From the NCBI GenBank assembly GCA_016218545.1, contig JACRDQ010000038.1:66986-130985 (forward strand): DNA of 64,000 nucleotides, read 5' to 3'. Shown piece by piece: positions 30,269-47,668 of the stretch. Numbering within the stretch: the first letter of the stretch is position 1; every line of letters begins with the position of its first letter. The notes under the pieces are model-generated. The model saw only the letters and a list, made by a program, of their open reading frames with translations. It made no database searches and was not told where the DNA came from. The translations under genes were made by a program, and so were the position numbers. Source of the DNA: Elusimicrobiota bacterium. Its GTDB lineage: Bacteria > Elusimicrobiota > Elusimicrobia > UBA1565 > UBA9628.

Positions 30269-30280
30269 GAGTGGTGCGTA

Positions 30281-33004: not shown

Positions 33005-33010
33005 GCCGCT

Positions 33011-33039
33011 ATTATAACAGTTGATGACGCCGGTGTCAG
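33011..33039 (-). promoter_or_regulatory. Sigma70-like promoter CTGACA-N17-TATAAT (extended TGtTATAAT) placed for a leaderless DsbA-like transcript
   Basis: On the minus strand the sequence reads CCTGACACCGGCGTCATCAACTGTTATAATAGCGGCATG. The -10 ends 6 nt before the ATG. The -35 lies within the right arm of the 57-bp palindrome. Confidence 0.4.
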
Positions 33040-33091
33040 GCATTCGAAAGATCCGAAAACCTTTGGTTTTCGGATCTTTCGAATGCCTGAC
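33035..33091. repeat. 57-bp perfect hairpin (27-bp arms, 3-nt loop). It would serve as a terminator for the subtilisin gene and overlaps the -35 of the DsbA-like promoter.
   Basis: GTCAGGCATTCGAAAGATCCGAAAACC-ttt-GGTTTTCGGATCTTTCGAATGCCTGAC, read directly. It lies immediately downstream, on the minus strand, of the S8 protease stop at 33100. Confidence 0.9.
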
Positions 33092-33099
33092 GCCAGCAA

Positions 33100-34329
33100 T
33101 CAGCGGACCAGCTTGGCCGCGTCCACGAGGCCGGCGCCCTGCTCTTCCGCGGGAACGTCCGGGAAGGGGGTCGCGCCGGCCTTGAACAGGGCTCGGACCT
33201 TCTCCGGCCCGTCTGCGGCCTTGGCAGCCACGGCCAGGGCGGCGAGCCCGGCTGCGTGAGGGCAGGCCATGGAGGTGCCGGAGAGCGACCGGTAGAGCCC
33301 GCCCGGGAAGGTGGATGGGATGGCCACGCCCGGGGCGATGAAGTCGACTTCAGGCCCCCGGCTGGAGAAGTACGCGACCTTGTCTCCCGCGTCCGAGGCC
33401 GCGATGGCGATGGCCTGCGGGTAGGCGGCGGGGTATCCCACCGCTCCCCCGGAGTTCCCGGCCGCGGCCACGAGGATGAGGCCCGCCTTGGCCATGGCTT
33501 CCACCGCCGCCTGGAGCGCCTCGTTGCCCCGGGAGGCGCCGAGGCTCATGTTGACGACCTGCATCTTGTTCGTCACCGTCCATTCCATGCCCGCGATGAC
33601 GTCGCTGAAATTGCCGCTGCCGTCCTTGTCGAGCACCTTGACCCCGTAGAGGGCCGCCTCCGGGGCGACGCCGACCACGCCGGCCGCGTCGTCTCGGGCC
33701 GCGATGGTGCCGGATACGTGGGTGCCGTGTCCGTTGTCGTCCTTGAAGTTCTTCGGGTCCTCCTTGTCGATGGCGCTCCAGCCCCCGGCCACCGCCCCCT
33801 TGAGGTCCGGGTGGTCGAAGTCGATCCCGGTGTCGATGACCGCCACCTTGACGCCCTTGCCCTTGGTGACGGACCAGGAGGCCGGAGCGTTGACGCGGAT
33901 GACGCCCCACGGCGCGTCCTGCCCGGCGGTCGGGGCGGGTGCCGCAGGGGAGGTCTCCAGCCTTCCTTTGAGGAACTCCGTCATGGCCGGCCAGGGGACC
34001 TCGTTGACCGCGGCAGGGGCTCCTTTGAGCCAATCGATGCGCGGGTCGTCCACGACGTTGAGGACGTCGCCCCGGGACTTGAGCCTGGCCTCGGCGGACT
34101 GCAGGAGGCTTGAGCCCGCGCGGATGACCACCGCGTTGATGAGGCGCAACTCCCGCACCACGACCCCTCCTGACTGCGAGGCGATGGCGACGCGCGCGCT
34201 GGGCGCGACGCTCCCCTTGAAGACCACGATGCGCTGGGAGGCCGACCCCATGGCATCGGCGGCGAGAGCGGGTCCGCGGAACCCCATGAAAACGGCTGCG
34301 ACGACGAGCCAGCGTGCGGCTCGTACCAT
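33100..34329 (-). CDS. Secreted subtilisin-like serine protease (peptidase S8) with an N-terminal propeptide
   Basis: The catalytic triad motifs are VAVIDTGID (Asp), HGTHVSGTIAA (His) and GTSMACPHAAGLAAL (Ser). A signal peptide is present (MVRAARWLVVAAVFMGFRGPALA). Confidence 0.9.
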   Translation of the reverse strand: MVRAARWLVVAAVFMGFRGPALAADAMGSASQRIVVFKGSVAPSARVAIASQSGGVVVRELRLINAVVIRAGSSLLQSAEARLKSRGDVLNVVDDPRIDWLKGAPAAVNEVPWPAMTEFLKGRLETSPAAPAPTAGQDAPWGVIRVNAPASWSVTKGKGVKVAVIDTGIDFDHPDLKGAVAGGWSAIDKEDPKNFKDDNGHGTHVSGTIAARDDAAGVVGVAPEAALYGVKVLDKDGSGNFSDVIAGMEWTVTNKMQVVNMSLGASRGNEALQAAVEAMAKAGLILVAAAGNSGGAVGYPAAYPQAIAIAASDAGDKVAYFSSRGPEVDFIAPGVAIPSTFPGGLYRSLSGTSMACPHAAGLAALAVAAKAADGPEKVRALFKAGATPFPDVPAEEQGAGLVDAAKLVR

Positions 34330-34451
34330 AGAAACCTCCTGTGTGACCCGCGCTCGGGCGCGGGGGAGACTCGGCGCTACATGGATGATGGCCGAGAGTA
34401 TAGCACAAAAGGAGGGAAGAAAGACCTACACGCGGCTAGGTCTTTTGGCCC

Positions 34452-35123
34452 CTAGAAGAGCCCCAGGAAGCGGTCTTCGTACTCCTCGAAGAGGCCGTAC
34501 TCGCGCAGCTTGTCCCCAAGCCGTTCCCTGGCCGCCGGGTCGGCCGAGGCCGCGGCGAAGAGCCCCGAGATCTCGCGCCGCCGGGCCTCGGCGGCCTTGC
34601 CTTCCGGGTCGAAGAGGCCGCGGCGCTCGAGGTCGCGGACGTGGACCGGGAAGGACCGCGCCGCCTCCTCGAGGGTCAGCTTCATGAGCGCCAGGGCCCA
34701 CCCCTTGTCCGGGCAGCGCAGCACCGCGGCGTGCGGGTCCTCGGAGCGCTCGACCTCGGCCAGGACGCGCTCGAGGACCGCGGGCAGCCTCTCGGAGACC
34801 ACGGTGGCGGCGAAGCCATCGTTCTTGAAGTTGTACTCGAGGACCCTGAGGAGGTCGCGGTAGGCGGCGTTCACCCAGCCCTCGAACTCGGCGGCCGTGT
34901 CGCCGAAGCCCTGGAACCGCTCCTTGAAGGAATCGGGCGTCACGATCTGCGGCCTCTCGGACACGACCGAGCCGCGGCGCACGCGCGTGCGGCCGGGCGC
35001 GTCCTCCAGAGGCGAGACCAGCCTGTAGGAGATGCGGGTGGCGCCGAAGGTCGAGAGCAGCCTGCGCGGGGAGCGCAGGACCTCGGTCCGCCGCAGGAGG
35101 GACTGGATGGCCGAGGGGTCCAT
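34452..35123 (-). CDS. Hypothetical protein, 223 aa
   Basis: ORF with an ATG start, divergent from the radical SAM gene. No recognisable motifs. Confidence 0.35.
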   Translation of the reverse strand: MDPSAIQSLLRRTEVLRSPRRLLSTFGATRISYRLVSPLEDAPGRTRVRRGSVVSERPQIVTPDSFKERFQGFGDTAAEFEGWVNAAYRDLLRVLEYNFKNDGFAATVVSERLPAVLERVLAEVERSEDPHAAVLRCPDKGWALALMKLTLEEAARSFPVHVRDLERRGLFDPEGKAAEARRREISGLFAAASADPAARERLGDKLREYGLFEEYEDRFLGLF

Positions 35124-35162
35124 GGGTTTGGTATGATGTGCTCCGACGGAGGATTATACAAC

Positions 35163-36137
35163 ATGGGCGTGGACCTTAGATTCGTGGCGACGGGGGCCAA
35201 GAGGGTCGTGGACTCGCGGCCTTTCTACGTGCAGATGATGGTGACGGACGACTGCAACCTCCGCTGCGCTTATTGCGACGAATACAACGCCGGCTCCCCG
35301 CTGCCTCCCCTCTCCGAGCTCATGGCGCGCGTCGACAAGCTCGACGCTCTGGGCGCGCTGGTCTACGACCTGCTCGGGGGCGAGCCCCTCCTGCACCCCG
35401 GCGTCGCCGAGCTCGTGGGCCGCGTCAAGTCCAAGCGGGGCGGTTCCAACCTCTGCACCATCATCACCAACGGGTTCCTCCTGACGCGCGACAACATCCG
35501 CGCCCTCAACGACGCTGGCCTGGATTTCATGCAGGTCTCGGTGGACTCGGTCGCGCCCACCGCGGCGTCGCAGAAATCCCTCAAGACCGTCATGCCGCGC
35601 CTGCGCCTGCTGGCGGAGGAGGCGAAGTTCACGGTGGAGGTCCAGACCGTGCTCTGCGAGTCCACCGCGGACTCCTACGACGAGTTCCGCTCCCTGATGA
35701 AGGACCTCCCCTTCTCCTTCGGGTTCTCGGTCCAGCACGGCCCCGGGGGCCGCATCGCCATCCAGGGGAAGAAGTACCTCGACCTCCTCGGGCGCTACGG
35801 CGTCTTCGAAGGCGTCAACTTCTACGGCAGGCACATCGAAGAGATGCTCCAGGGGGACTTCTCCCGGCCCTGGAAGTGCCTGGCCGGGTTCAAGTTCCTC
35901 TACGTGAACGCCGCGGGCGAGGTCCAGTGGTGCGGCCAGCAGCGGGCCGAGAAGCGGCCCTTGGCCGCGCTGGCCCCCGCGGACCTCAGGACCAACGACC
36001 GGCACAAGCCTTGCGAGCCCGGCTGCTCGCTCGGCTGCGTGCGCCTGGTCTCCCACACCCTGGGCCAGCCCGTGAAGACCTTCGGCGCGAGCGTGCGCCT
36101 CCTGCTGGCCGCGGTCCTGCCGAAGAAGAAGGAGTAG
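35163..36137 (+). CDS. Radical SAM enzyme with a C-terminal Cys-rich (SPASM/twitch-like) region; possible peptide or protein maturase
   Basis: The CxxxCxxC cluster is TDDCNLRCAYCDE, located about 30 residues from the N-terminus. The glycine-rich SAM motif is LLGGEPLL. Further Cys residues sit in the C-terminal third (WKCLAGF..., VQWCGQQ, KPCEPGCSLGC). The upstream 170 codons of the track ORF are rejected. Confidence 0.7.
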   Translation: MGVDLRFVATGAKRVVDSRPFYVQMMVTDDCNLRCAYCDEYNAGSPLPPLSELMARVDKLDALGALVYDLLGGEPLLHPGVAELVGRVKSKRGGSNLCTIITNGFLLTRDNIRALNDAGLDFMQVSVDSVAPTAASQKSLKTVMPRLRLLAEEAKFTVEVQTVLCESTADSYDEFRSLMKDLPFSFGFSVQHGPGGRIAIQGKKYLDLLGRYGVFEGVNFYGRHIEEMLQGDFSRPWKCLAGFKFLYVNAAGEVQWCGQQRAEKRPLAALAPADLRTNDRHKPCEPGCSLGCVRLVSHTLGQPVKTFGASVRLLLAAVLPKKKE

Positions 36138-36250
36138 TCTCCGGGGCGGCGGTCCCGGCCCGCGGAAGAATCCTCGTCCATCCGGGCGCGTTCTGTGGTA
36201 TGATAGACCTAGTCGCAGACTAGGCCCAAAGGCCCAGGAGGTACCCCTCG

Positions 36251-37159
36251 ATGAGAAGAGCCGCACTCGTCATCCCGGCCGCAGTCATGGCGTTCGCCCT
36301 GCTGGCGGCCACGGTCCGCGCCGAAGCCCCTGCGTTGGATTTCGACCAGGGCGTCAACGCCTCGGACGTCCTGAAGGCGGCCAAGGCGGCGGCGGCTGAC
36401 TCGAAGGTCGGCAAGGACGTGGTCGTCCGGCCGCTCTACCGCCGCTACGACCGCGACTGCGTCAACTTCACGATCGGCGCCGACGACGCGCCTCAGACCG
36501 AGGCCGTGTGGCTGCGCAGCACCGAGTGGGTGCAGGAGTGCCACCCGACGGGTCCCAACGGCGCTCAGACCTGCTATGACCGGCCGGGCTATACCTACAG
36601 GGAGCGCGCCTCCGTGGCCATCCGCGACCGCGGCCGGCTCTTCCCGTGGGAGTACGACAGCTTCGACGTCTGCCTCGAGGGCCCGTGGCTCAACATCTGG
36701 TCCCGCGAGACCGCCTACGAGTACAAGACCGTGCGGGGCGGGACGTACAACGGCGGCTTCGTGCTCTCCCCGGTCAAGAAGCTCCGCATGAAGCCCGACC
36801 CCGCCGGCATCCGCGTCCAGGCTCTGAGCCCGCAGCTGGCCGCGCTCTTCCGCGACAAGTGGGCCTCCTACTACGCGGGCGAGACCGTCGTGCTCTCGCT
36901 CAAGCTGCGCAAGTCCGTGCCGGGCTGGTTCGACGCGACTTTGCTCGAGCGTGAGCTCTCGTTCGCCGCCGCCGAGACCTACGGGGTGGACTTCATGGCC
37001 TTCGCCGGCGAGTTCTCGCAGAAGCTCGAGGCGGGCAAGCCCTACTACGTCGAGTACTCCTTCAAGAGGCTCAGCAAGATCTCGACGGACAAGCTCCAGA
37101 AGGCGGGGGAGTCCGACAAGGTCGTCTATCAGCCGGCCGCCGCGGCCCTGGGCCGTTAG
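36251..37159 (+). CDS. Secreted hypothetical protein, 302 aa, with 4 Cys
   Basis: The signal peptide is MRRAALVIPAAVMAFALLAATVRAEA. There is no homology recognisable by eye. Confidence 0.4.
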   Translation: MRRAALVIPAAVMAFALLAATVRAEAPALDFDQGVNASDVLKAAKAAAADSKVGKDVVVRPLYRRYDRDCVNFTIGADDAPQTEAVWLRSTEWVQECHPTGPNGAQTCYDRPGYTYRERASVAIRDRGRLFPWEYDSFDVCLEGPWLNIWSRETAYEYKTVRGGTYNGGFVLSPVKKLRMKPDPAGIRVQALSPQLAALFRDKWASYYAGETVVLSLKLRKSVPGWFDATLLERELSFAAAETYGVDFMAFAGEFSQKLEAGKPYYVEYSFKRLSKISTDKLQKAGESDKVVYQPAAAALGR

Positions 37160-37229
37160 CTCCGGCGGGAAGGCCGCAAAACGAAAGGCCCCTCCGGGCC
37201 GAGCCCGGAGGGGCCTTCCCGTCCCCGCC

Positions 37230-37553
37230 TCAGAGCAGGGGCGCGAAGAAGGTCCCGAGCCGGATGCTGATGATCTTGGTCTTCTCTCCGAGGTCCCTGC
37301 AGTAGGCGATGCTCACCAGGTCCGCCATGGGGGGCAGTCCGCCCGTGAGCCCGGCCTCGTATTGCCTGACCGCGATCAGGTAGCGCCGCGTGGCCACGCA
37401 CTCGTTCCAGAGCCCGCCGCCCCTGACCTTGGCCACGCAGAAGGAAAGCTCTTCCTTAGGTAGGTCCTTGGCCGGGTCGAGGGACGAGGCGGCCAGGGCC
37501 GCGGCCGGCAGGAGCAAGGCTGAGACCAGGAAGATCGAGAGGAATCGGTTCAT
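37230..37553 (-). CDS. Small secreted 3-Cys protein (about 107 aa). Paralog of the 40168-40452 gene. Divergently paired with TPR-STK #1.
   Basis: Start at internal Met MNRFLSIFLVSALLLPAAALA (signal peptide), preceded by a GGAGGTG RBS. The shared pattern with the paralog is F-C-x-x-K-V...GG...E-C...(about 22)...C. Confidence 0.5.
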   Translation of the reverse strand: MNRFLSIFLVSALLLPAAALAASSLDPAKDLPKEELSFCVAKVRGGGLWNECVATRRYLIAVRQYEAGLTGGLPPMADLVSIAYCRDLGEKTKIISIRLGTFFAPLL

Positions 37554-37576
37554 GATGCCACCTCCGTCGTTCCACA

Positions 37577-37624
37577 CCAGTATAACAGGGGTTTCTTGAC
37601 TTTTCAAGGGTGAGGGGATACACT
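37577..37624. promoter_or_regulatory. Back-to-back promoter module, copy 1. On the minus strand it gives an extended -10 TGTTATACT for the small gene. On the plus strand it gives TTGACT-N17-TACACT for TPR-STK #1.
   Basis: CCAGTATAACAGG at 37577-37589. TTGACT at 37596-37601 and TACACT at 37619-37624, with an exact 17-nt spacer. ATG at 37641. Near-identical modules occur at 40491-40539 and 42940-42968. Confidence 0.6.
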
Positions 37625-37640
37625 TCTCGTAGAGGCCCCT

Positions 37641-40100
37641 ATGACCACCCCGCTGCCGCTCGTCCTCGCCGCTCTCATCGGACTCTCCGGCCCGTGCGCG
37701 GCGCAGGGCGGGTCTTCTCCGGGTCCGGGCGACATCCCCGAGGACGTCCTGGAGTTGGTCGGCGGAGACGTCCCGGCGGAGACCACGGTCGAGCTCCCGG
37801 AGGAGGCCAAGGACCTCCCTCCTGAGCAGGACGTGACCTTCGATCCGAAGGAGAGGGAATCCTGGCAGGGCTGGGTGGCCTTCGAGACCTCGGCCAAGGA
37901 GAAGCTCAAGCGCCTGGAGTCTTTGAGCGACGAAGAGCTCTCCGGCCTGGAAGCCGAGATCATCAGGTTCACGGGCCAGGGCGTCAAGGACAAGGTCCTT
38001 TCCGGAGCGATCAACAAGCTCAACGAGCGCATCATCCAGCTGAGGAACACGCGGGCGCAGGAGGTCGCCGCCAAGCCGCCGACGACCCAGGCGGAGGCGG
38101 AGCAGCGCAACCGGCTGGACCGCGTCAGCGGGATGTTCGGCGAGATGTACAAGGGCATGGCCGTCCAGGAGATGAGGACGGACCCCCAGAGCCCTGAAGG
38201 CTTCTCCAGGTACGGTTTTGCGCTCGTCATGGAGGGGAAATACCGGCAGGCCGCGCCGGTGCTCGAGCGCGCCGTGCGGCTGGGGGCCAAGGACAGCCGG
38301 ACCTTCTCATCCTACGGCACCGCGGCCTTCCACCTCGGCGACTTCGCCCTGGCGCGCAGCGCAGCCGGCCGCGCGTTGAAGATCGACCCGCAGAACGACG
38401 CGGCCTTCGCGGTGATGCGGCTCTCCGAGGGCAAGAACCCGGCGGTGACCCTGCCCTCGGTCCTGACCGGAGGAGGGAGCGGGGAGGGGGTCTTCTCCGC
38501 GGCCGCCGGGAACGAGGCCGTGTCCGGAGCTCCTTCGGTGCAGGCCGGGGCTCAGCCGGCAGCGGCCGGCCGGGCTCCCATGGTCCTGAGGTCCCCGGAA
38601 GCGGGAAAGTCCTCCGCGTTCGCCAAGGAGGCTGCCGCGGCCCTGGCGGTCAAGGATTATCTCAGGGCCATCGAATCCGCGACCAGGGCCATCGAGGCCA
38701 ACGACGGCAATGCCCAGGCATGGAACTACCGCGCCATCGCGAACAGCAAGCTCGGCCGCTACGATGCCGCGGTCAGGGACGCGAGCCACGCCCTGGCCCT
38801 GGCGCCCAAGAATCCCGCGGCTCTCCACACCCGGTCCTGGGCCTTGAACAAGCTGGGCCGCTTCCAGGAGGGGCTGACGGACGCCGATGAGGTCCTGGCG
38901 CGGGAGCCGGACAACGCCTTCGCCCTGCAGAACCGCGCCTTCTCCCTGGCCGGGCTCGGGGACCGCAGGGGCATGCTCGCCGCGCTCAAGCGCGCGGCCG
39001 AGATCGAAAAGCGCTTCCAGGCCCGCTACGAGAAGGCCGTCCAGGTCCCCGAGAACGCGGACGTGCTCTTCCTCTTCGACCAGGACCCCGGGCTCAAGCC
39101 CGGGACCGCCCCTGAGGCCGAGGCCGGAGCCAAGGCCGGGCGGGGCCTCCTCATCCCGATCCTGGCCGGGGCCGGATTCCTGGCCGCCCTGGCCGCGGCG
39201 CTCTCCCTGGCCCGGTGGTGGAAGACCTCCTCTTCGGGCCTCGGCGCGTCCGGGAACGGCGGGGGCGCGGTCCTGCGGGCCAGGGGCGAGGCCGGTGCGT
39301 TCTGGAAGAAATACAAGCTGGTGCGCGAGGTCGGCAACGGCGGCATGGGCGTGGTCTACGAGGCCGAGGACACCTCCCTGGGACGGCGCGTGGCGATCAA
39401 GAAGATGCGCGACGAGATCCGGCTCGACCGCAAGGAGCGCGAGCGCTTCCTCCAGGAGGCCCGGACCGTGGCCTCGCTCCGGCACCCGAACATCGTGGAG
39501 ATCTACTCCATCGTCGAGGACGCAGGAGAGGTCTACCTCGTCTTCGAGTTTGCGGAAGGCAAGACCCTCCACGAGGTCCTCTCCGACGGCGCTCCGCTCC
39601 CCTTCGACGCGGCCCTGCGCGTGCTCAAGGACGCGTGCGAGGCCGTGGACTGCGCCCATCGCGCCAGGATCGTTCACCGGGACATCAAGCCCTCGAACAT
39701 CATGGTCACGGACAGCGGGCCGGCCAAGGTCATGGATTTCGGGGTGGCGCGGCAGGCCAAGGACGCGGCCACCAGGAGCACCGCGACCTCGGTGGCGGGC
39801 ACGCCTCCGTACATGGCTCCCGAGTCCGAGCAGGGCACGGTCGGGCCCCGGGGGGACGTCTACGGCCTGGCCGTGGTGTTCTACGAGATGCTGACCGGAA
39901 AGCTGCCTTTCGCCGGGACCGGGGCCGGCATGCTGCTCAACAAGATGAACCGCAAGTTCGACGCGCTCTCCCAGGCTGCGCCGGGCCTGCCCGCGGGCAT
40001 CGACGCGGTGATGTCGCGGGCCCTGGCTCCGGAGCCTGGCGAGAGGTTCAAGACCGCGGGAGAGTTCCTCGCCGCGGTCCAAGGGCTCAAGGCGTCCTGA
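37641..40100 (+). CDS. Receptor-type Ser/Thr protein kinase #1: signal peptide, extracytoplasmic TPR domain, TM helix, cytoplasmic Hanks-type kinase domain
   Basis: TPR repeats are present (AWNYRAIANSKLGRYDAAVRDASHALALAP...). The TM helix is LLIPILAGAGFLAALAAALSLA. Kinase motifs: VGNGGMGVVYEA, AIKKM, HRDIKPSN, DFGVAR, PPYMAPE. Confidence 0.85.
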   Translation: MTTPLPLVLAALIGLSGPCAAQGGSSPGPGDIPEDVLELVGGDVPAETTVELPEEAKDLPPEQDVTFDPKERESWQGWVAFETSAKEKLKRLESLSDEELSGLEAEIIRFTGQGVKDKVLSGAINKLNERIIQLRNTRAQEVAAKPPTTQAEAEQRNRLDRVSGMFGEMYKGMAVQEMRTDPQSPEGFSRYGFALVMEGKYRQAAPVLERAVRLGAKDSRTFSSYGTAAFHLGDFALARSAAGRALKIDPQNDAAFAVMRLSEGKNPAVTLPSVLTGGGSGEGVFSAAAGNEAVSGAPSVQAGAQPAAAGRAPMVLRSPEAGKSSAFAKEAAAALAVKDYLRAIESATRAIEANDGNAQAWNYRAIANSKLGRYDAAVRDASHALALAPKNPAALHTRSWALNKLGRFQEGLTDADEVLAREPDNAFALQNRAFSLAGLGDRRGMLAALKRAAEIEKRFQARYEKAVQVPENADVLFLFDQDPGLKPGTAPEAEAGAKAGRGLLIPILAGAGFLAALAAALSLARWWKTSSSGLGASGNGGGAVLRARGEAGAFWKKYKLVREVGNGGMGVVYEAEDTSLGRRVAIKKMRDEIRLDRKERERFLQEARTVASLRHPNIVEIYSIVEDAGEVYLVFEFAEGKTLHEVLSDGAPLPFDAALRVLKDACEAVDCAHRARIVHRDIKPSNIMVTDSGPAKVMDFGVARQAKDAATRSTATSVAGTPPYMAPESEQGTVGPRGDVYGLAVVFYEMLTGKLPFAGTGAGMLLNKMNRKFDALSQAAPGLPAGIDAVMSRALAPEPGERFKTAGEFLAAVQGLKAS

Positions 40101-40167
40101 CCGGGCTCGAGACAAAGAGGAAGCCCCCGGCGCGAGCCGGGGGCTTCCTCTTCGGCGCGGACCCGGG

Positions 40168-40452
40168 CTAGTTCTTCAGCACGATCTTCATCAAGGCTTG
40201 GCGGGCCTTGCCCGACTCAGCCTCGTTCTGGCAGAAGTCCCACCTGAAACCCTTGGGGAGGTTGCCTTGGTCGAGCAGGAAGCGCTCCGTGTCCATGCAT
40301 GCCTCGATGAGCGTCTGCTTCTTCGCGGCGTCTCCTCCGGCGAGGCGCTCTGCGACCTTGGGACAGAAGGTGTTTCCCGGCTCCCTTTGGCCCTGGGCGT
40401 AGACGATGCCGACGGTCACGGTCGTCAAAATGAGCGCGATGAGTTTTCTCAT
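40168..40452 (-). CDS. Small secreted 3-Cys protein (94 aa). Paralog of 37230-37553. Divergently paired with TPR-STK #2.
   Basis: The signal peptide is MRKLIALILTTVTVGIVYAQG. Cys residues are at FCPKV, EACMD and DFCQN. GGAGAGGAGGG RBS. Confidence 0.5.
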   Translation of the reverse strand: MRKLIALILTTVTVGIVYAQGQREPGNTFCPKVAERLAGGDAAKKQTLIEACMDTERFLLDQGNLPKGFRWDFCQNEAESGKARQALMKIVLKN

Positions 40453-40490
40453 AATCCCTCCTCTCCCAAGCAGGGAGTCAGCATTTCAAT

Positions 40491-40539
40491 CCCAGTATAA
40501 CAGGACCTCCTTGACAAATCAAGGGGGGGGCTGTACACT
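40491..40539. promoter_or_regulatory. Back-to-back promoter module, copy 2 (CCCAGTATAACAGG; TTGACA-N17-TACACT)
   Basis: TTGACA at 40511-40516 and TACACT at 40534-40539. ATG at 40555. The same architecture as copy 1. Confidence 0.6.
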
Positions 40540-40554
40540 AGGGATGGAGCGACC

Positions 40555-42906
40555 ATGAACCGCCTGAAGGCCTCGGCGCTTGCGCTGGCCTTGACCTCCT
40601 CTCTCTGGCTTCCCTCGGTCGTCCTCGTCGCCGAGGAGGACGCCGCGGGCGAGGATGAAGGCGACGTGGTGCGCGCGGTCCGCATCCGCGAGCTCATCTG
40701 GGGCGAGGTGCAGATCGAGGGCGACGTGACGCAGTACGTCACCCAGCTGCGCACGGAAATCAAGAGTTTGGAGGACAAGCAGCTCCGCGAGGACCTCCTG
40801 GTCGAGCTCGGCAAGAAGTTCGGCATGCCCGGCGACACCAGCCCCAGGCCCGAGGGAGGGGGGCCCAAGCCGGGCGAGTCAGGGTTCTCCGAGACCGTGG
40901 TGCTGGGGCTCAGGCGGAACATGCTGCCCGAATGGCGGCAGAACTCGCCCAACAACCCGGTGGCCTGGGCGGAGAACGGCTACCTCGACTGCTCGCTCCA
41001 GAACTACCGGGCCTGCCTGGCGAACCTCGGCCGGGCCATCGACCTCGGCATCAAGGACCCCAAGGCCTACGCGACCTACGGGAGCGCGGCCCACAATCTC
41101 GGCGACTACAAACTCGCCTTGAAGGCGGCCTCCGCGGCCTTGAAGCTCGACCCCGGGCACGAGGGCGCGCACGCGGTCTACAAACTCTCCGAGGGCAGGG
41201 TCTCCACGGTCGAGCTCCCGTCCTCCCTGCACGGCGACATCTTCGGAGGAGCTCCGGCCCTCCCGGCCGAGCCGGCCGCGGTGGACGCGCCTCCGCCGGC
41301 GCAGGCCGCGGGGGCCGTGGTGCCCGGGCGCGAGGCGGGCCCGGCTCCGGTCGTGCCCCAGGAGACCCAGCGCCGCATGACCGCGGCCGAGGTCGAGCGC
41401 TCCGCGGTCTTCACCCGCCAGGCCGCGGCGTCGCTGGCCGTGCGCGACTACGTGCAGGCCCACGAGGCGGCCAGCCGCGCCATCCAGATCAACCTTCGCA
41501 ACGCGCAGGCCTGGAACTACCGAGCCATCGCGAACAACAAGCTGGACCGCTACCAGGACGCGGTCTACGACGCGAGCTTCGCCTTGAACCTCGCTCCCGG
41601 GAACGCGGCGGCGCTCCAGAGCCGTTCGTGGGCCCACAACAAGTCCGGCAAATACCAGGAGGCGCTGGCGGACGCCAACTTCACCCTGGAGCGCGAGCCC
41701 GGCAACGCCTTCGCCTTCCAGAACCGGGCCTTCGCTCAGGCCGGGCTCAAGGACCGCGTGGGCATGCTGGAGTCCCTCAAGCGCTCCGCCGAGCTCGACC
41801 CCAGGTTCAAGCAGCGCTACGACGCGGCGCTCCAGGCGCCCGCGAGCGGCGACATCCTCTACCTCTTCGACGAGGAGTCCTCGGCCGGCAAGGCGGCTCC
41901 TCCGGCCTCGCCCGAGCGCATGCGCAAGCGCTTCCTCACCCTCTCGGCCGCGGTCGTCTCAGGGGGCCTGCTCATGGCCTTGGGCCTGCTGCACATCGTG
42001 TCCTCCGCCTGGAGGGAGAAGGTCCGCTCCACGGTCCGCCGGGTGCTCGGCGTGCCCACGCCCTCCTCCGGCCCCTCGGACCCGGCGACCGGGTCTCCTG
42101 CGAGCGGGGGCTTCTGGGGGCAGTACCGCCTCATCCGGGAGGTGGGCTTGGGAGGCATGGGCGTGGTCTACGAGGCGGTGGACACCGCACTCGACCGCCG
42201 GGTGGCCATCAAGAAGATGCGCGACGAGATCCGTCTCGACCGCAGGGAGCGCGAGCGCTTCCTCCAGGAGGCGCGGACCGTGGCCTCGCTCAAGCACCCC
42301 AACATCGTGGAGATCTTCTCGATCGTGGAGGACGGCGGGGACGTCTACCTCGTCTTCGAGTTCGCGGACGGCCGCACGCTATCAGCCCTGCTCGAGGAGG
42401 CCGGGAAGCTCCCCTTCGAGAAGGCCAAGGCCGTGCTCAAGGACGCGTGCGAGGCCGTGGACTGCGCCCACCGGCACAAGGTCGTGCACCGGGACATCAA
42501 GCCCTCGAACATCATGGTGACCGAGAGCGGAGCCGTGAAGGTCATGGACTTCGGTGTGGCGCGGCAGGCCAAGGAAGCGGCCACCAAGGTGATGACGAAC
42601 ACCGTGGCGGGCACCCCGCCTTACATGGCGCCTGAGGCGGAGCAGGGGACGGTCGGGCCCCAGTCGGACGTCTACGGGCTCGGGGTCGTGTTCTATGAGC
42701 TCCTCAGCGGGGAACTCCCGTTCGCAGGGCACGGGGCGGGCATGCTCCTCAACAAGCTCAACGGCAAGTTCATTCCCCTGTCCCAGGCGGCGTCCGGCCT
42801 GCCGACAGGCATCGACGCTGTGATGGCCCGGGTCCTGTCTCCGGACCCTGCCAAGCGCTATAAGAGCCCTACGGAGTTCTTCCAAGCTGTCCAAGGCCTT
42901 TCCTGA
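40555..42906 (+). CDS. Receptor-type TPR Ser/Thr protein kinase #2
   Basis: Same architecture as #1. The kinase domain is about 85% identical by eye (IKKMRDEIRLDRRERERFLQEARTVASLKHPNIVEIFSIVEDGGDVYLVFEFADG...). Confidence 0.85.
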   Translation: MNRLKASALALALTSSLWLPSVVLVAEEDAAGEDEGDVVRAVRIRELIWGEVQIEGDVTQYVTQLRTEIKSLEDKQLREDLLVELGKKFGMPGDTSPRPEGGGPKPGESGFSETVVLGLRRNMLPEWRQNSPNNPVAWAENGYLDCSLQNYRACLANLGRAIDLGIKDPKAYATYGSAAHNLGDYKLALKAASAALKLDPGHEGAHAVYKLSEGRVSTVELPSSLHGDIFGGAPALPAEPAAVDAPPPAQAAGAVVPGREAGPAPVVPQETQRRMTAAEVERSAVFTRQAAASLAVRDYVQAHEAASRAIQINLRNAQAWNYRAIANNKLDRYQDAVYDASFALNLAPGNAAALQSRSWAHNKSGKYQEALADANFTLEREPGNAFAFQNRAFAQAGLKDRVGMLESLKRSAELDPRFKQRYDAALQAPASGDILYLFDEESSAGKAAPPASPERMRKRFLTLSAAVVSGGLLMALGLLHIVSSAWREKVRSTVRRVLGVPTPSSGPSDPATGSPASGGFWGQYRLIREVGLGGMGVVYEAVDTALDRRVAIKKMRDEIRLDRRERERFLQEARTVASLKHPNIVEIFSIVEDGGDVYLVFEFADGRTLSALLEEAGKLPFEKAKAVLKDACEAVDCAHRHKVVHRDIKPSNIMVTESGAVKVMDFGVARQAKEAATKVMTNTVAGTPPYMAPEAEQGTVGPQSDVYGLGVVFYELLSGELPFAGHGAGMLLNKLNGKFIPLSQAASGLPTGIDAVMARVLSPDPAKRYKSPTEFFQAVQGLS

Positions 42907-42939
42907 ACCCTAATTTTCGGTAAAGAATGTTGTTCCAGC

Positions 42940-42968
42940 TTGACAAACCAGCCACCTCCCTATACACT
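42940..42968 (+). promoter_or_regulatory. Promoter copy 3, TTGACA-N17-TACACT, upstream of TPR-STK #3
   Basis: TTGACA at 42940-42945 and TACACT at 42963-42968. ATG at 43018. There is no divergent small gene here. Confidence 0.55.
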
Positions 42969-43017
42969 TATCACAGGGCGTGACCCGAGTTTTTGCCGGG
43001 TAGGAAGAGGAACTGCC

Positions 43018-45831
43018 ATGAACTTGAGAAATGCTTCGTTTTGCATGATTTTCATCGTTTGCCAGGCAGCGACGTTTAGCCTGGCCCAGGAAACTGCGTC
43101 CAAACAGGAGAGCGCGTCTCCCCAGAGTCTTCAGCTTGCCATGGAAGCCGCCTTCCCTCCTGCTCCGCACCGGGTGGTGGAAAGTCCGGATGGAGACACG
43201 GCGGCGGCCCTCCTGGCTACGGCTCCGAGCGGGGCCACCCTGGCCGAGGCCAACTTGCAGGTCCAACAGGCGAACAAGAAGGAGGGCAGGCGAGGGCGCA
43301 ACCCGGATCTGCCGCAGGTCATCGACGGCTTCTTCAAGAGAGGCACCTACGCGGAATTCGACAACATCCTCCAGAATTCCGACGATACAGGGGTCAAGTT
43401 CGGGATCTGGCAGCTGGTGCGCGGGTCCTACGGCTTCGCCAAGACCGAGAACGCGGTCAAGGACGGGGAGCTGGAGAAGGGCTCTGCCGAGTATGAGGGC
43501 GCGATCACCAGAGTCCATGGGCAATTCCGCACAGGGCTTGACGCTATCGACGGCAAACCCGTGCCCCAACTCGAAGGGACGCAGGGGCATGGCGGGGTGG
43601 ACAGGCGCAGGAGCCCGGAGTCTCGTCACGAGTACGGCCAGGCGCTGGGCAAGCTCCCGGACGGCCTTCAGCCGAGCAGTGAGTCTCTGGGAGCAGTGAC
43701 CACCAAGGACAAGAATGGGACGGACCAGATCGCCGGCTCCATCGAGGCGGCCAAGGCCTTGGTGGACACGACCGTGTCCGGAGTCCGCCAGGCGCTCGAG
43801 ACCAAGCTCGACTACGTGTTCGTGAGGGTCTGCGGAGGCCTTCCCAGCGCAGGGCAGGCGTGCGGCGGCAGTGAGACGCCCAAGCCCCCCACGCCTCCTG
43901 TCCCCGGCCCCGGCCCTGTTCCTGACCCGGTCCCCACCCCCACTCCTGGCCCTGTCGAGGATGGCCAGGGACAGCTCGACCAGGGGAACCCCCGGCAGGC
44001 TGCCGAGACCTTCGACCGGGCCATCGAGCGCGATCCATGGGACGTGCGAGCCATCGCGGGCAGGGCCCAGGCCAGCTATATGATGGGCGACTACCGCTTG
44101 GCGACAGGATTCTCCAAGGCCGCGCTGTCGCACGAGCCGGGCAACCAGGCCGCCTTCGCCACCTTGCGGCTTTCCGAGAACCGCTCTCCGAAGGCGTCGG
44201 CCTCCGCCGCGAGCGCTGCCGCGGCTGCTGGAGGAGGGAACGCCGAGCTTTTCGCCGCGAGCGCGGTCACCGGGGCGGGCGCTTCCTCGGGCTTCAAGCT
44301 GGATGCGACCCGGCCTGAGGCGGTCCAATCAGCGGCCCAGGTCAAGCTTGCCGAGAAGGCCCTGCGGGTCGGGGATTTCGCCGCTGCGCGGTCCTACTCG
44401 ACCCGCGCCCTGGAGCTCAACCCGAAGAACGGGCAAGCCCTCTTCTACCGCTCCGTGGTCAATGCCAATGGCCGCGACTATGCCGGTGCCCTGGCGGATG
44501 CCGAGGCCGGGCTCGCCCTGGTGCCGAACAATGCAGCGCTTCTCAATTCCAAGGCCTTCGCCCTCAACCGGATGGGAAAGTACAAGGACGCCTTGGCCGC
44601 TTCCGAGGCCGCCCTGCTCGTCAACCCCAGGGACGCCTCGGCCCTGGCCAACCGCGCCTACGCGGTGGGCGGGCTGGGGGACAGGGCCGCCATGCTTGAG
44701 AACCTGCGCGCCGCGGCCTCCATCGACCCGAGGTTCCAGTCCAGCCTCGAGTCCGCCCTGCAGATGCCCGATGACTCGGACCTGCTCTTCCTCTTCCCCG
44801 GCGAGGCCGGGCCGGCCCACGCCCGTTCGGGCGCGGTGCCCGAGCGCGGCAAGAGCCGGAGCCTGCGCACCCTCGGCTTGGCCGTGGTGGGCGTGCTGCT
44901 CGCGGCCGGTCTCTTCGCCTTCGCCACCGGAGGCCGCAGGGACGCGGCCCTCCCGGCCGCGGCCGGCAACGTCCCGGCCCCGGCCGACGGGCCCGTCCCG
45001 CAGCAGGGCGTGAGCACCCTGCTGCGCAACCAGTACGAGATCATCCGCCAGATCGGGGCCGGAGGCATGGGCGTGGTCTTCGAGGGCCTCGACCGCGCCC
45101 TCAGGCGCAAGGTGGCCATCAAGAAGATGCGCGAGGAGATCCGGCTCAACGCCAAGGAGCGGGAGCGCTTCCTCACCGAGGCCAAGACCGTGGCCTCCCT
45201 GCACCACCCCAACGTGGTCGACATCTACTCCATCGTGGAGGACGACGACGTCTACCTGGTCTTCGAGCACGTCTCCGGCGCCACGCTCCACGAGCGCATC
45301 CACCGCGACGGGCCCCTGCCCCTGGCCGAGGCCGTGGCCGTGTTCCAGGGCATCGCCGCGGCCCTGGACGCGGCTCATGGCCGCGGCATCATCCACCGCG
45401 ACCTCAAGCCCTCCAACGTCATGATCGACGAGGAGGGCAGCGCGAAGGTGATGGACTTCGGGGTGGCCCGGGTCGCCAAGGACGCGGCGGGCAGGTACTC
45501 GATGACCAACACCGTGATGGGGACGCCGCCCTACATGGCGCCGGAGCAGGAGACCGGGGTCGTGCGCAAGGAGGGAGACGTCTACTCCATGGCGATCTGC
45601 CTCTACGAGACCCTGACCGGGCAGCAGCCCTTCGCGGGCATGGGCGCGGGCATGCTCCTCAACAAGATGAACGCGTCCTTCGCTCCGGCGACCAAGACGA
45701 ATCCTGTCCTGCCCCAAGGCATCGACGCTGTCTTCTCCAAGGCGTTCGCGGCCGACCCGGATAAGCGCTACGCCTCGGCGGGCGAGTTCATGAAGGCCGT
45801 AGAAGCCGCGGCCGGGGTCCCGAAGGCGTGA
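43018..45831 (+). CDS. Receptor-type TPR Ser/Thr protein kinase #3
   Basis: Signal peptide MNLRNASFCMIFIVCQAATFSLAQE. A longer extracytoplasmic region with a Pro-rich stretch and TPRs is followed by a TM helix and a kinase domain (IGAGGMGVVFEG, HRDLKPSN, DFGVAR, PPYMAPE). The 42940 TTG start given in the track is rejected. Confidence 0.8.
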   Translation: MNLRNASFCMIFIVCQAATFSLAQETASKQESASPQSLQLAMEAAFPPAPHRVVESPDGDTAAALLATAPSGATLAEANLQVQQANKKEGRRGRNPDLPQVIDGFFKRGTYAEFDNILQNSDDTGVKFGIWQLVRGSYGFAKTENAVKDGELEKGSAEYEGAITRVHGQFRTGLDAIDGKPVPQLEGTQGHGGVDRRRSPESRHEYGQALGKLPDGLQPSSESLGAVTTKDKNGTDQIAGSIEAAKALVDTTVSGVRQALETKLDYVFVRVCGGLPSAGQACGGSETPKPPTPPVPGPGPVPDPVPTPTPGPVEDGQGQLDQGNPRQAAETFDRAIERDPWDVRAIAGRAQASYMMGDYRLATGFSKAALSHEPGNQAAFATLRLSENRSPKASASAASAAAAAGGGNAELFAASAVTGAGASSGFKLDATRPEAVQSAAQVKLAEKALRVGDFAAARSYSTRALELNPKNGQALFYRSVVNANGRDYAGALADAEAGLALVPNNAALLNSKAFALNRMGKYKDALAASEAALLVNPRDASALANRAYAVGGLGDRAAMLENLRAAASIDPRFQSSLESALQMPDDSDLLFLFPGEAGPAHARSGAVPERGKSRSLRTLGLAVVGVLLAAGLFAFATGGRRDAALPAAAGNVPAPADGPVPQQGVSTLLRNQYEIIRQIGAGGMGVVFEGLDRALRRKVAIKKMREEIRLNAKERERFLTEAKTVASLHHPNVVDIYSIVEDDDVYLVFEHVSGATLHERIHRDGPLPLAEAVAVFQGIAAALDAAHGRGIIHRDLKPSNVMIDEEGSAKVMDFGVARVAKDAAGRYSMTNTVMGTPPYMAPEQETGVVRKEGDVYSMAICLYETLTGQQPFAGMGAGMLLNKMNASFAPATKTNPVLPQGIDAVFSKAFAADPDKRYASAGEFMKAVEAAAGVPKA

Positions 45832-45885
45832 ACAGGTTCGGGGCCTGGGGGAAGGGAGGGGCGCAGATTTTGTACAATAGCAGTA

Positions 45886-45935
45886 GGAAATCCTGATGAA
45901 AAGGATTTCCTTCCTGAACGCTCTGCGTTCAGGAA
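45886..45935 (+). terminator. Two adjacent hairpins between the STK #3 gene and ssrA
   Basis: GGAAATCCT-gatgaaa-AGGATTTCC (45886-45910) and TTCCTGAACG-ctctg-CGTTCAGGAA (45911-45935). No U-tract. Confidence 0.35.
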
Positions 45936-45942
45936 GGCATAT

Positions 45943-46293
45943 GGGGGTGAATAGGTTCGACAGCTGCCTCTAGGTCGTTGGCAGCAGGCCCTGGTTGGTC
46001 AGCGCCAGGATAAAAGCCGACCAAAACAACAAAAGCCAACTCACAGTTGGCCTGGGCCACCGCCTAATAAGCGCGTAGCCTACGCCGGTCCCTGACACCT
46101 GCTGGGGGAGCGCCGGCGTCATGAGCAGGCTGGACGGCCGCACCGCGCGTTTCGTCGGGGCGGACGTCGAGAACAAAACGGAACAACTCGGGAGCACCTG
46201 TCCGCCGGTTTTCCCGGGTCGTGCCGGCGGACTAAGCCTGTAGCGGCCGCGGCGGGAGACGGTTGGACTCGAGTGCGATTCTCGACACCTCCA
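45943..46293 (+). ncRNA. ssrA: tmRNA (transfer-messenger RNA, ssrA). Predicted tag ORF GCC AAC TCA CAG TTG GCC TGG GCC ACC GCC TAA TAA (ANSQLAWATA**).
   Basis: The 5' end is GGGGGUGAAUAGGUUCGACAG. The 3' end is GGACUCGAGUGCGAUUCUCGACACCUCCA. The acceptor stem GGGGGUG pairs with CACCUCC and includes a G3:U70 wobble. A 5-bp T-stem (UCGAG/CUCGA) with a 7-nt loop abuts the acceptor strand. The discriminator is A and CCA is not encoded. The A-rich tract ACCAAAACAACAAAA precedes the resume codon, and there is a double stop UAAUAA. Total length is about 351 nt. Confidence 0.85.
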
Positions 46294-46297
46294 AGAT

Positions 46298-46336
46298 TTC
46301 CGCGGGAGCCCGAAAGGGCTCCCGCGGAGCTATTTG
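46298..46336 (+). terminator. Rho-independent terminator of ssrA (GNRA-looped hairpin followed by a T-rich tract)
   Basis: TTCCGCGGGAGCCC-gaaa-GGGCTCCCGCGGAG then CTATTTG, starting 5 nt after the tmRNA discriminator. Confidence 0.6.
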
Positions 46337-46351
46337 ATACAATGAACATCG

Positions 46352-47668
46352 GTGTTTGACTACCGCTTCGTCACCCTGCTCGGCGCGACCCTGGTCTTCG
46401 CCCCGCTGTCGGTCCTCTTCATCTTCATCTCCGGCATGGGTCCGGGCCTCTTCCCTCTCTACGGGCTCATCTTCCTCTGGTGCGACTACCGCAGGGAGGC
46501 CGAGGCGCACGTCATCTTCCTCTTCATGGTGACCACCGCCGGGGTCGTGCTCGCGGCCTCCGCCGCAGCGCAGCGGAACGTGCTCGGAGCCGAGATCCTC
46601 GGGATGTGGATCCTGGTATGGGCCCTGGGCCTCCATCACCGGCGGGGCGCCGATGTCCTGCACGAGGCCCGGGAGGAGATGGCCAAGCTGGCCGGGTCCC
46701 TGCGGGACGACGAGTCCGAGTTGACGCGACTCAACGCCTATCAGGCGAGCGCCGCGGTCCAGATCGGCCTGCGCCAGGACCTCACCGAGAGCGCGCGCAG
46801 CCTGGGCTCGACGCTCGACGGCCGCGAGGTCCACGTCCGATTGAACGGCATCCTCTGCGCGCGCTTTGCGGGCAGCAGGGTGCGCATCCAGGCCTGGGCT
46901 TCGGGGGACCCCCTGCTCGAGTTGGCGATGAAGGCCGGGACCGTGGCCCTGGTCAAGGACACGGCCACGGACGCGCGCTTTTCCTCGGGCGGGGCGGGCT
47001 TCCGCTCCGGGATGGCGGCCCCGCTGAAGGTCATGCGCCAGTCCGCGGGCTTCGTCAAGGTCGAGTCGGACCAGGCCGGCGCGTTCGGCACGCAGGAGGT
47101 CCAGTCCCTGGACCTCATCACCACCATGGCGTCCCTGAGCCTGGAGAACATCCGGCTCTACGAGACCGTGCAGGAGCAGGCCACGCACGATCCGCTGACC
47201 GGGCTCTTCAGCCACCGGGCCTTCCAGGCCAGGCTGCACGAGGAGCTCCTCCGCGCCGGACGCAGCCAGACCCCGGTGTCCTTCATCCTCTGCGACGTGG
47301 ACCACTTCAAGACCTACAACGACCGCTACGGCCACCAGGCCGGAGACTCCCTGCTCAGGTCCGTGGCGTCCATGCTCGCGTCCTTCGCCCGGCCGGTGGA
47401 CTTCCCGGCCCGCTACGGCGGAGAGGAGTTCTGCCTCGTGCTGCCGAGCGTCCCGCTCGCCGAGGCCCTGGACCTGGCCGAGCGCCTGCGCGCCCGCGTC
47501 GAGGCCGAATCTTTCGTTTTCCAGGGCGTCAAGACCGGGGCCACGATGAGCCTGGGCGTGTCCGCTTTCCCCCAGGACGCCACCACCGCCAGCCAGATCG
47601 TGCGCGTGGCCGATGAGCGGCTCTACCGCGCCAAAGCCGGGGGCCGCAACAGGGTGGCGGGGGTCTGA
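46352..47668 (+). CDS. Membrane GAF-GGDEF diguanylate cyclase #1 (GTG start)
   Basis: It has 3-4 N-terminal TM helices, a GAF-like region and a GGDEF domain with RYGGEEF and DPLTGLFSHRAF. Its stop overlaps the start of the next GGDEF gene. Confidence 0.75.
   Translation: MFDYRFVTLLGATLVFAPLSVLFIFISGMGPGLFPLYGLIFLWCDYRREAEAHVIFLFMVTTAGVVLAASAAAQRNVLGAEILGMWILVWALGLHHRRGADVLHEAREEMAKLAGSLRDDESELTRLNAYQASAAVQIGLRQDLTESARSLGSTLDGREVHVRLNGILCARFAGSRVRIQAWASGDPLLELAMKAGTVALVKDTATDARFSSGGAGFRSGMAAPLKVMRQSAGFVKVESDQAGAFGTQEVQSLDLITTMASLSLENIRLYETVQEQATHDPLTGLFSHRAFQARLHEELLRAGRSQTPVSFILCDVDHFKTYNDRYGHQAGDSLLRSVASMLASFARPVDFPARYGGEEFCLVLPSVPLAEALDLAERLRARVEAESFVFQGVKTGATMSLGVSAFPQDATTASQIVRVADERLYRAKAGGRNRVAGV

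Follow-up and report, generated by a model that had tools for sequence, protein, structure and literature searches.

Do small exported proteins that are encoded back to back with bacterial receptor kinases act as partners of these kinases? This question is raised by a 64-kb stretch of DNA from an uncultivated Elusimicrobia bacterium (contig JACRDQ010000038.1, positions 66,986 to 130,985; the whole stretch is hereafter the window), in which two small genes, SP1 and SP2 (NCBI locus tags HY924_12995 and HY924_13005), lie divergently upstream of the kinase genes K1 and K2 and form one cassette with each of them. Together with K3, these encode three tandem paralogous kinases (37641–45831) in a eukaryote-like orientation, the reverse of the usual bacterial order. 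We established that SP1 and SP2 are real genes for exported-type proteins, that their pairing with the kinases and the promoter architecture are conserved, and that their evolutionary rates are high. With a confidence just short of even, we favour the explanation that each SP is a dedicated periplasmic accessory protein (an inhibitor, a co-sensor or a ligand) which would bind the ectodomain of the neighbouring kinase.

SP1 and SP2 Are Genes for Exported-Type Proteins

In line with the initial annotation of this DNA, which had described secreted small proteins on the opposite strand immediately upstream of kinases 1 and 2, we found genes for proteins of 107 and 94 amino acids (aa) at these positions, both with a signal peptide and a ribosome-binding site (RBS; GGAGGT before the ATG of SP1 and GGAGGG before that of SP2). 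A longer version of SP1 starting at TTG, present in the list of open reading frames (ORFs), was judged unlikely. By inspection, both signal peptides are of the n/h/c type. That of SP1 consists of MNR, FLSIFLVSALLL and PAAALA, with predicted cleavage before AS, and that of SP2 of MRK, LIALILTTVTVGIV and YA, with predicted cleavage before QG (cleavage context VYA before Q). They share a positively charged n-region, an h-region of 10–15 residues, small residues at positions -3 and -1 and the absence of a lipobox cysteine, and both proteins are predicted to be of the exported (Sec) type.

The GC content at third codon positions (GC3) was 0.91 for SP1 and 0.85 for SP2, compared to 0.87–0.94 for neighbouring genes, values that ORFs on the opposite strand do not match. 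Further, both genes end just ahead of a GC-rich hairpin able to terminate the convergent gene too; at SP1, a terminator-like site on the minus strand comprises GGCCCGGAGGGGCC and TTTCGTTTTG (37200..37187). The possibility that SP1 and SP2 are chance ORFs has to be considered, as high-GC DNA gives many spurious ORFs and the two proteins carry no family annotation. It is effectively refuted by the RBS, signal peptides, promoters and terminators, by the GC3 values of 0.85–0.91, by homologues in at least seven independent contigs, and by the behaviour of the orthologues, whose length differences are whole codons (in-frame indels) and whose ratios of nonsynonymous to synonymous substitution (dN/dS) are below 1 (0.30–0.74 for SP1 and 0.19–0.41 for SP2), indicating purifying selection. 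SP1 and SP2 are therefore real genes.

The Adjacent Kinases Carry Predicted Extracytoplasmic TPR Domains

K1 and K2, each of roughly 800 aa, and the paralogue K3 share the same order of parts: after the signal peptide and an N-terminal region that is variable come two TPR blocks, a single transmembrane (TM) segment and a C-terminal Hanks-type kinase. The kinase domains matched Pfam PF00069 with E-values of 6e-51, 5e-54 and 2e-50, respectively, as befits Hanks-type Ser/Thr kinases, and K587, H679-R680-D681, N686, D699-F700-G701 and A726-P727-E728 were invariant across the three proteins, with the Gly-loop, VAIK, HRD...N, DFG and APE motifs all intact. In K1, TPR matches extend over residues ~180–470, the sole internal hydrophobic segment over 499–525 and the kinase over 558–819. 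Since the TPR domain is placed between the signal peptide and the TM segment, it is predicted to be extracytoplasmic, and the three proteins have the make-up of TPR-ectodomain receptor kinases with a type-I topology, as judged from hydropathy alone. Among the best 80 loci of the genome scan described below, relatives matching the TPR region came only from Elusimicrobia contigs. K3 lacks a small gene, as had been proposed, its upstream gap being just 111 bp with no small gene inside.

The Pairing Is Retained While Both Proteins Diverge

Related loci (L001 onwards) were obtained from a kinase-anchored scan of species-representative genomes, from exact-protein look-ups and from a metagenome scan for the promoter block. 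Divergent SP/TPR-kinase pairs were found twice each in the window, L002 and L098, and once each in L001, L102 and the distant loci L085 (kinase putative) and L090. L002 was syntenic and carried both cassettes, whilst L001 carried cassette 2 and L102 cassette 1. In L098, cassette 1 was followed by an SP2 slot holding a tandem pair of genes for small secreted proteins, and then by K2 and K3. Pairing and compact promoter were thus kept in at least five related contigs (L001, L002, L098/L099 and L102), and SP1 orthologues were present in L002, L098, L099 and L102.

The distant metagenomic loci L085 and L090 keep the interdigitated promoter, with a small secreted protein on the left that has an F[LI]ATRA[YF] core and 0–1 cysteines. 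The L085 protein matched the SP1-family profile (E=6e-4), and that of L090 was linked weakly, via L085 only (BLASTP E=0.013). On the right, the secreted protein of L090 is homologous to the TPR ectodomain of the kinases (E=8e-10); the right-hand protein of L085, of which 85 N-terminal residues are available, is secreted as well and a putative kinase. The co-occurrence across genomes on which the initial annotation had made its proposal depend was observed in related contigs and in L085 and L090, but not among the more distant Elusimicrobia TPR-kinases examined.

Next to this retention of gene order, the protein sequences have changed rapidly. In the same genome pairs, SP1 orthologues were 38–49% identical, compared to about 60% for K1 and about 80% for a neighbouring 302-aa protein. 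SP2 showed 72–73% identity to its orthologue P0003/L001 (dN/dS 0.21) and 53% to that of L002. In the ectodomain of K1, identity between orthologues was only 16–20% over the N-terminal 185 residues, while the TPR and kinase regions were mostly 74–78% identical, with the exception of TPR block A in the L098 comparison (57%). Rapid divergence is therefore seen in parallel in the small protein and at the outer end of the kinase ectodomain.

The Divergent Promoters Abut at Their -35 Boxes

The word CCAGTATAACAGG has exactly two copies in the window, at 37577 and 40492 (chance expectation 0.18, allowing two mismatches). A consensus scan of 36000–46500 gave six sigma-70-like sites, compared to 0.5 expected, and five of the six were located within the three gaps upstream of the kinases. 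In both cassettes the kinase promoter (TTGAC[T/A]-17-TACACT) and the small-gene promoter (TTGA[AA/TT]-17-TGnTATACT) come close to the sigma-70 consensus, the -35 hexamers abut and the predicted start sites are 59 bp apart. The compact back-to-back promoters announced by the initial annotation are thus present and conserved, although the word is separated from the kinase -35 box by 6 bp rather than about 10. The same annotation had called both promoters perfectly conserved; the -10 boxes are indeed identical between the cassettes, but the -35 boxes differ by 1–2 nucleotides (nt). As a cassette-specific regulatory word, CCAGTATAACAGG was rejected, as it belongs to a general promoter that also drives an unrelated noncoding RNA.

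Between loci, the promoter block is strongly constrained, including its spacer sequences. That of cassette 2 was identical to L001 at 46/46 nt (47 with the next base), compared to a difference of ~50% at synonymous sites, and that of cassette 1 had 2/46 nt changed relative to its counterparts in L002, L098 and L102. The abutting -35 boxes form a palindrome, CTTGA-N4-TCAAG, at 37595–37608 in cassette 1 and 40510–40523 in cassette 2. Because of this abutment, there may be competition between the two divergent RNA polymerases; alternatively, the palindrome could be more than two -35 boxes, namely an operator to which a dimeric regulator binds. An extended form, CCTTGA-N4-TCAAGG, is centred on the abutting boxes at 37594–37609 and 40509–40524, and in cassette 2 of L098 (L098:2660-2740) the palindrome is doubled, with one copy for each promoter.

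In E. coli, symmetric bidirectional promoters have overlapping -10 elements and start sites that are typically 18 bp apart, and RNA polymerase engages them either way (PMC12825309). The cassettes likewise place two divergent promoters on one short pseudo-symmetric segment, but here it is the -35 boxes that meet and the predicted start sites are more widely spaced.

SP1 and SP2 Probably Belong to One Lineage-Restricted Family

SP1 and SP2 showed no similarity in BLASTP (E=5.3), and an hhalign comparison of two against three sequences was marginal (P=0.0076), so relatives from other loci were needed to assess their homology. With these, the SP1-family profile matched that of five SP2-slot proteins with a probability of 94% (P=9e-8, score 42.4), compared to a mean score of 9.3 and a maximum of 18.9 in 200 column shuffles used as a control, and the L098 SP2-slot proteins alone matched the SP1 family with P=2e-6. 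Further, in reciprocal hidden Markov model (HMM) searches of 11,812 ORFs, each group had the other as its top-ranking match. In the same set of ORFs, the HMM of window-type SP2 had the SP1-family protein P0005 as its best foreign match (E=0.34, not significant), and P0007 came third. We consider the homology of SP1 and SP2 probable, not proven, and both are probably members of one family.

This family is new, lineage-restricted and fast-evolving. When 1.84 billion representative proteins were searched exhaustively with the SP1 profile (HMMER), six proteins only were returned, among them P0005 and P0008, which are tandem two-domain versions. Word-indexed searches of 5.8e9 proteins recovered SP1 and SP2 themselves and one orthologue of each. 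Pfam, NCBIfam and PDB-sequence searches assigned no family to the SPs, with no Pfam match at E≤1 for any of 14 domains and no PDB match at E≤10. The SP HMMs matched no kinase ORF at E<10, that is, an SP-like domain fused to a kinase N-terminus (a 'Rosetta stone') was not found.

An alignment of the 14 domains has the core L..E..FC...V / C..TR.YL / lP....[YF]C.N..E, and it lines up exactly those cysteines that the initial annotation had paired. The pattern then proposed as common to SP1 and SP2 is supported by profiles only, and its details differ: SP1 has FCxxKV, EC and a 32-residue gap, SP2 has FCxKV, EAC and a 21-residue gap. Nor do three cysteines serve as a hallmark, as had been suggested, given that only Cys1 and Cys2 are conserved. 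These two positions were C/C in 11/14 domains and Y/F together in the remaining 3/14, while Cys3 was present in 8/14 and lost from several orthologues; the sole invariant residue of the family is a Glu. Since both positions change together, they are suggested to be in contact, most simply through a disulfide that would staple the two helices of a helical hairpin. AlphaFold2 monomers were unusable, with a predicted local distance difference test score (pLDDT) of 51 for SP1 (single sequence) and 52 for SP2 (two sequences).

Comparison with Known Kinase and Peptide Systems

A literature search found nothing on Elusimicrobia TPR-kinase cassettes. Several described systems were compared feature by feature. 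In the CpxP-CpxA and ZraP-ZraSR systems, the gene of the small protein (cpxP or zraP) and the kinase operon are divergently transcribed. CpxP acts as an inhibitor of CpxA through its periplasmic domain, and ZraP serves ZraSR as an accessory protein in the periplasm (PMC6737893). As in these systems, a small protein, putatively mostly helical and Sec-exported, is encoded here beside a membrane sensor kinase, and in the known cases it binds the extracytoplasmic domain. Differences are that the kinase is of the Hanks Ser/Thr type with a TPR ectodomain rather than a histidine kinase, that no response regulator feeding back onto the small gene is visible, and that the SPs have no sequence relationship to CpxP or ZraP. 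Membership in the CpxP/Spy/ZraP family (LTXXQ / Metal_resist) was rejected on the Pfam and PDB results given above, which include neither LTXXQ nor any other Pfam match.

Among bacterial Hanks-type receptor kinases with a periplasmic TPR domain, PknS of Xanthomonas has one TM segment, a periplasmic TPR sensor and a cytoplasmic Hanks kinase, the ectodomain being thought to modulate activation; the paper mentions no dedicated small secreted partner (PMC13147305). K1–K3 share the single TM segment, the TPR domain outside and the kinase inside. However, PknS has the usual bacterial order, with the kinase N-terminal and the periplasmic TPR domain C-terminal, which is reversed in the type-I arrangement predicted here.

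In the Rap-Phr/RRNPP(A) systems of Bacillota, a TPR receptor is accompanied by an adjacent small Sec-exported product, the cassettes multiply and diverge fast, and subtilisin-type proteases mature the signal (PMC3601957, PMC11343458, PMC5199041). The pairing of a TPR receptor with the Sec-exported product of an adjacent small gene is common to both. In contrast, RRNPP receptors are cytoplasmic and their mature peptide of 5–10 aa is re-imported, phr lies downstream on the same strand, and the SPs have 2–3 times the length and a conserved core for which folding is predicted. The cassettes were hence not assigned to the RRNPP type, their TPR domain being extracytoplasmic and fused to a kinase, and their small genes (94–107 aa) divergent. 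At the plant S-locus, the receptor kinase gene SRK is tightly linked to SCR/SP11, the gene of a small secreted Cys-containing ligand, and both evolve fast; this is an analogy only, between a eukaryotic system and proteins of unrelated folds and families.

Explanations for the Pairing of SPs and Kinases

TPR domains are protein- and peptide-binding modules. As a dedicated accessory protein, an SP would be exported by Sec to yield a mature domain of about 75–90 residues, the core of which would be the helical hairpin, probably stapled between Cys1 and Cys2. Expressed from a strong promoter interdigitated with that of the adjacent kinase, it would bind the kinase ectodomain and set or report kinase activity, following the logic of CpxP-CpxA and ZraP-ZraS. 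Periplasmic location, disulfide, SP-kinase contact and the sign of regulation are what we infer here. The arrangement would then be a known scheme, an accessory periplasmic protein with a sensor kinase, served by a new family.

Several results weigh against such a partnership, and some of them favour its main rival, in which SPs and kinases would be neighbours only. The SPs would then be lineage-specific periplasmic or envelope proteins on the lineage's standard strong promoter, and the pairing would persist through close relatedness and block duplication. The SP-kinase contact itself is a prediction from gene arrangement and rates. The two cassettes of the window are products of one duplication and therefore not independent, and most syntenic loci come from close relatives; in L002 and L098 synteny spans the whole neighbourhood, so that it partly reflects relatedness. 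TPR-kinases devoid of an SP-family gene are common (K3 and the distant Elusimicrobia loci L003, L005, L008, L009, L011 and L012), and secreted small or mid-sized divergent ORFs beside the L004 and L010 kinases were not matched by the SP HMMs or by a motif regular expression. Conversely, the two-domain proteins P0005 (L100:116-730) and P0008 (L101:648-1310) lie on short contigs with no kinase in view. These contigs look lower in GC, with secreted ankyrin-repeat proteins and a TPR protein as neighbours, and the domains of P0005 are 52–54% identical to the SP1 of the window despite a wholly different gene context, which may reflect horizontal transfer or a broader role of the domain. The promoter block is of a general type, used in 14 metagenomic loci for an unrelated noncoding RNA, and sharing it therefore does not imply specific co-regulation. 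Lastly, the three window-type SP2 sequences alone matched the SP1 family weakly (P=0.0015, probability 17%). Mere neighbourhood is nevertheless rather unlikely in our judgement: the pairing survives in L085 and L090 although the small protein has diverged there nearly beyond recognition, L098 gained its second SP copy within the same slot, and the spacers of the shared block are strongly constrained.

If SP and kinase do interact, the SP may be a ligand, as the initial annotation had interpreted it. This remains plausible, being partly supported by the conserved pairing and the parallel fast divergence, and it is weakened by the SP-less kinases and the general promoter. In its fullest form, the cassettes would be undescribed ligand-receptor pairs: with its periplasmic TPR ectodomain, the back-to-back type-I kinase would sense a fast-evolving SP or a fragment that an extracytoplasmic subtilase had cut from it, cognate specificities would arise by tandem duplication as in rap-phr and SRK-SCR, and the interdigitated promoters, or a regulator on CCTTGA-N4-TCAAGG, would set the ligand:receptor ratio. 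We regard this full scheme as unlikely. A narrower pro-signal version, resembling Rap-Phr but sensed outside the cytoplasm, would have the exported SP cut by an extracytoplasmic protease, perhaps the S8 subtilase whose gene lies at a distance of 3 kb (33100–34329), so that a fragment such as the SP1 C-terminal tail RLGxFFxx[LI][LM] is read by the TPR ectodomain and cognate pairs diversify by duplication. That tail is among the two most conserved segments of kinase-linked SP1 orthologues, and TPR receptors are known to bind short peptides, with Phr propeptides being Sec-exported and cut by subtilisin-family proteases (PMC3601957, PMC11343458). Likewise, rap-phr cassettes diversify through duplication and divergence (PMC5199041), and the tandem domains of P0005 and P0008 resemble tandemly duplicated pheromone propeptides (PMC11343458). 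However, SPs are proteins of 75–90 residues, compared to about 40 aa for Phr precursors, and they are predicted to fold and have their conserved core at a distance from the C-terminus; the tail differs in the SP2 subfamily and its extreme end is not conserved; the S8 gene is no direct neighbour of the SP genes, and synteny alone may account for its linkage; and cleavage of the SP is itself an assumption of the model. We therefore rate it as improbable. Still further down, at the level of a slim chance, stands a cross-linked peptide of the QhpC kind, in which Cys and Glu residues of the SP would be modified by two enzymes encoded nearby, the radical SAM protein and the S8 protease. Both genes lie within 4 kb (radical SAM, ~35166–36137; S8, a sub-threshold QhpE match of 108 bits vs. 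a cut-off of 165), Glu is the only invariant SP residue and Cys is prominent. Yet the SPs bear classical Sec signal peptides, not the kind of leader that goes with a cytoplasmic maturase and ABC export, three members have Tyr/Phe in place of Cys, the radical SAM protein matches generic models only, far below their cut-offs, and no transporter gene was seen. The SPs were accordingly not classed as QhpC-like, a type defined by a non-Sec leader and an adjacent QhpD-type SPASM maturase, QhpE protease and ABC exporter, given their Sec signal peptides, enzymes far below the family cut-offs and no exporter in sight.

To our knowledge, the activators of bacterial Hanks-type receptor kinases are mostly unknown outside the PASTA/muropeptide case. 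A linked exported partner, if true, would provide a TPR-ectodomain kinase of the rare eukaryote-like orientation with a candidate input that can be tested directly. The cassette is small, with two genes and a 90-bp control region, and two diverged copies plus a partner-less paralogue in one locus offer natural cognate, non-cognate and no-partner controls. For a phylum that is uncultivated and little studied, the locus also provides a promoter architecture and a new family of orphan proteins.

Neighbouring Genes and a Candidate Structured RNA

Coordinates of all features are compiled in the table below.

Table. Features of the cassettes, their surroundings and the group-A RNA loci. Positions refer to the window unless a locus is named.
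Feature	Position	Strand	Basis or remark
SP1, 107-aa small exported-type protein	37230..37553	-	ORF, RBS, signal peptide, GC3, orthologues
Kinase 1 (K1)	37641..40100	+	Pfam Pkinase 6e-51 and TPR families; catalytic residues intact
SP2, 94-aa small exported-type protein, probable distant SP1 paralogue	40168..40452	-	ORF, orthologues, profile links
Kinase 2 (K2)	40555..42906	+	Architecture as K1; 51% identity to K1
Kinase 3 (K3), paralogue, longer N-terminal ectodomain, without small divergent gene	43018..45831	+	Pfam, alignment
Cassette 1 interdigitated promoter	37577..37624	.	SP1 -10 37579-37584, TG 37586-37587, -35 37602-37607; K1 -35 37596-37601, -10 37619-37624
K1 promoter TTGACT-17-TACACT	37596-37624	+	Consensus scan
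SP1 promoter TTGAAA-17-TG-n-TATACT	37607-37579	-	Consensus scan
Cassette 2 interdigitated promoter	40492..40539	.	SP2 -10 40494-40499, -35 40517-40522; K2 -35 40511-40516, -10 40534-40539
K2 promoter TTGACA-17-TACACT	40511-40539	+	Consensus scan
SP2 promoter TTGATT-17-TATACT	40522-40494	-	Consensus scan
K3 promoter TTGACA-17-TACACT	42940..42968	+	No leftward partner promoter, half of palindrome only; same in L098
SP1 intrinsic terminator	37175..37217	-	Hairpin 37185-37217, then T-rich tail; just beyond convergent 302-aa gene
GC-rich hairpin between K1 stop and SP2 stop, likely bidirectional terminator	40120..40147	.	Minus-strand terminator-like site 40138..40122
MauE/DoxX-like membrane protein	31869-32621	-	
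Thioredoxin/DsbA-like exported protein	32357-33043	-	
Secreted S8 subtilase	33100-34329	-	Sub-threshold QhpE and mycosin matches
Unannotated 223-aa protein	34452-35123	-	
Radical SAM protein	~35166-36137	+	
Group-A RNA units with terminator (11 loci)	L082:7950-8266, L084:4296-4716, L086:185-564, L088:66-462, L089:25-434, L091:3500-3908, L092:1940-2308, L093:178-560, L094:2263-2696, L095:10684-10953, L097:3159-3546	-, +, -, -, -, +, -, +, +, -, + (in this order)	

Convergent with SP1 lies the gene of the 302-aa secreted protein (36251–37159, plus strand), which had no Pfam or NCBIfam match and is 79–81% identical and syntenic in L002, L098 and L102; the radical SAM gene upstream may belong to the same operon. 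The region 31869–36137 is conserved and also present in L098. Its gene content suggests a periplasmic oxidative-folding or peptide-maturation toolkit, which could act on the Cys-containing small proteins. Genes for c-di-GMP signalling flank the kinase array (29852–31303 and 46352–48945), with a PAS-GGDEF protein and response regulators upstream and two membrane GGDEF diguanylate cyclases downstream.

The promoter that the metagenome scan detected ahead of an unrelated GC-rich noncoding RNA, termed group A, reads CCTTGACAAGTCAA-N6-CCTGTTATACT in the 14 loci. Here, the palindrome is a perfect inverted repeat and no rightward -10 box is evident. The units were 270–434 nt long in 11 loci and ended with a conserved terminator, GAAGAGCCCCCG...CGGGGGCTCTCAATTTTT; in L083 and L087 the promoter was present and the conserved terminator was not found, and L096 is truncated where its contig ends. 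RNAalifold predicted 84 pairs, 18 of them with compensatory changes. Rfam gave no match, be it at the gathering threshold or at E≤1, and neither a tRNA nor a tmRNA was recognized, which leaves the transcript as a candidate for an undescribed structured RNA. One of the contigs with a group-A RNA, L089, also carries a DUF3800-V RNA (RF02964; 56 bits, E=9e-11) at L089:1505-1601 on the plus strand.

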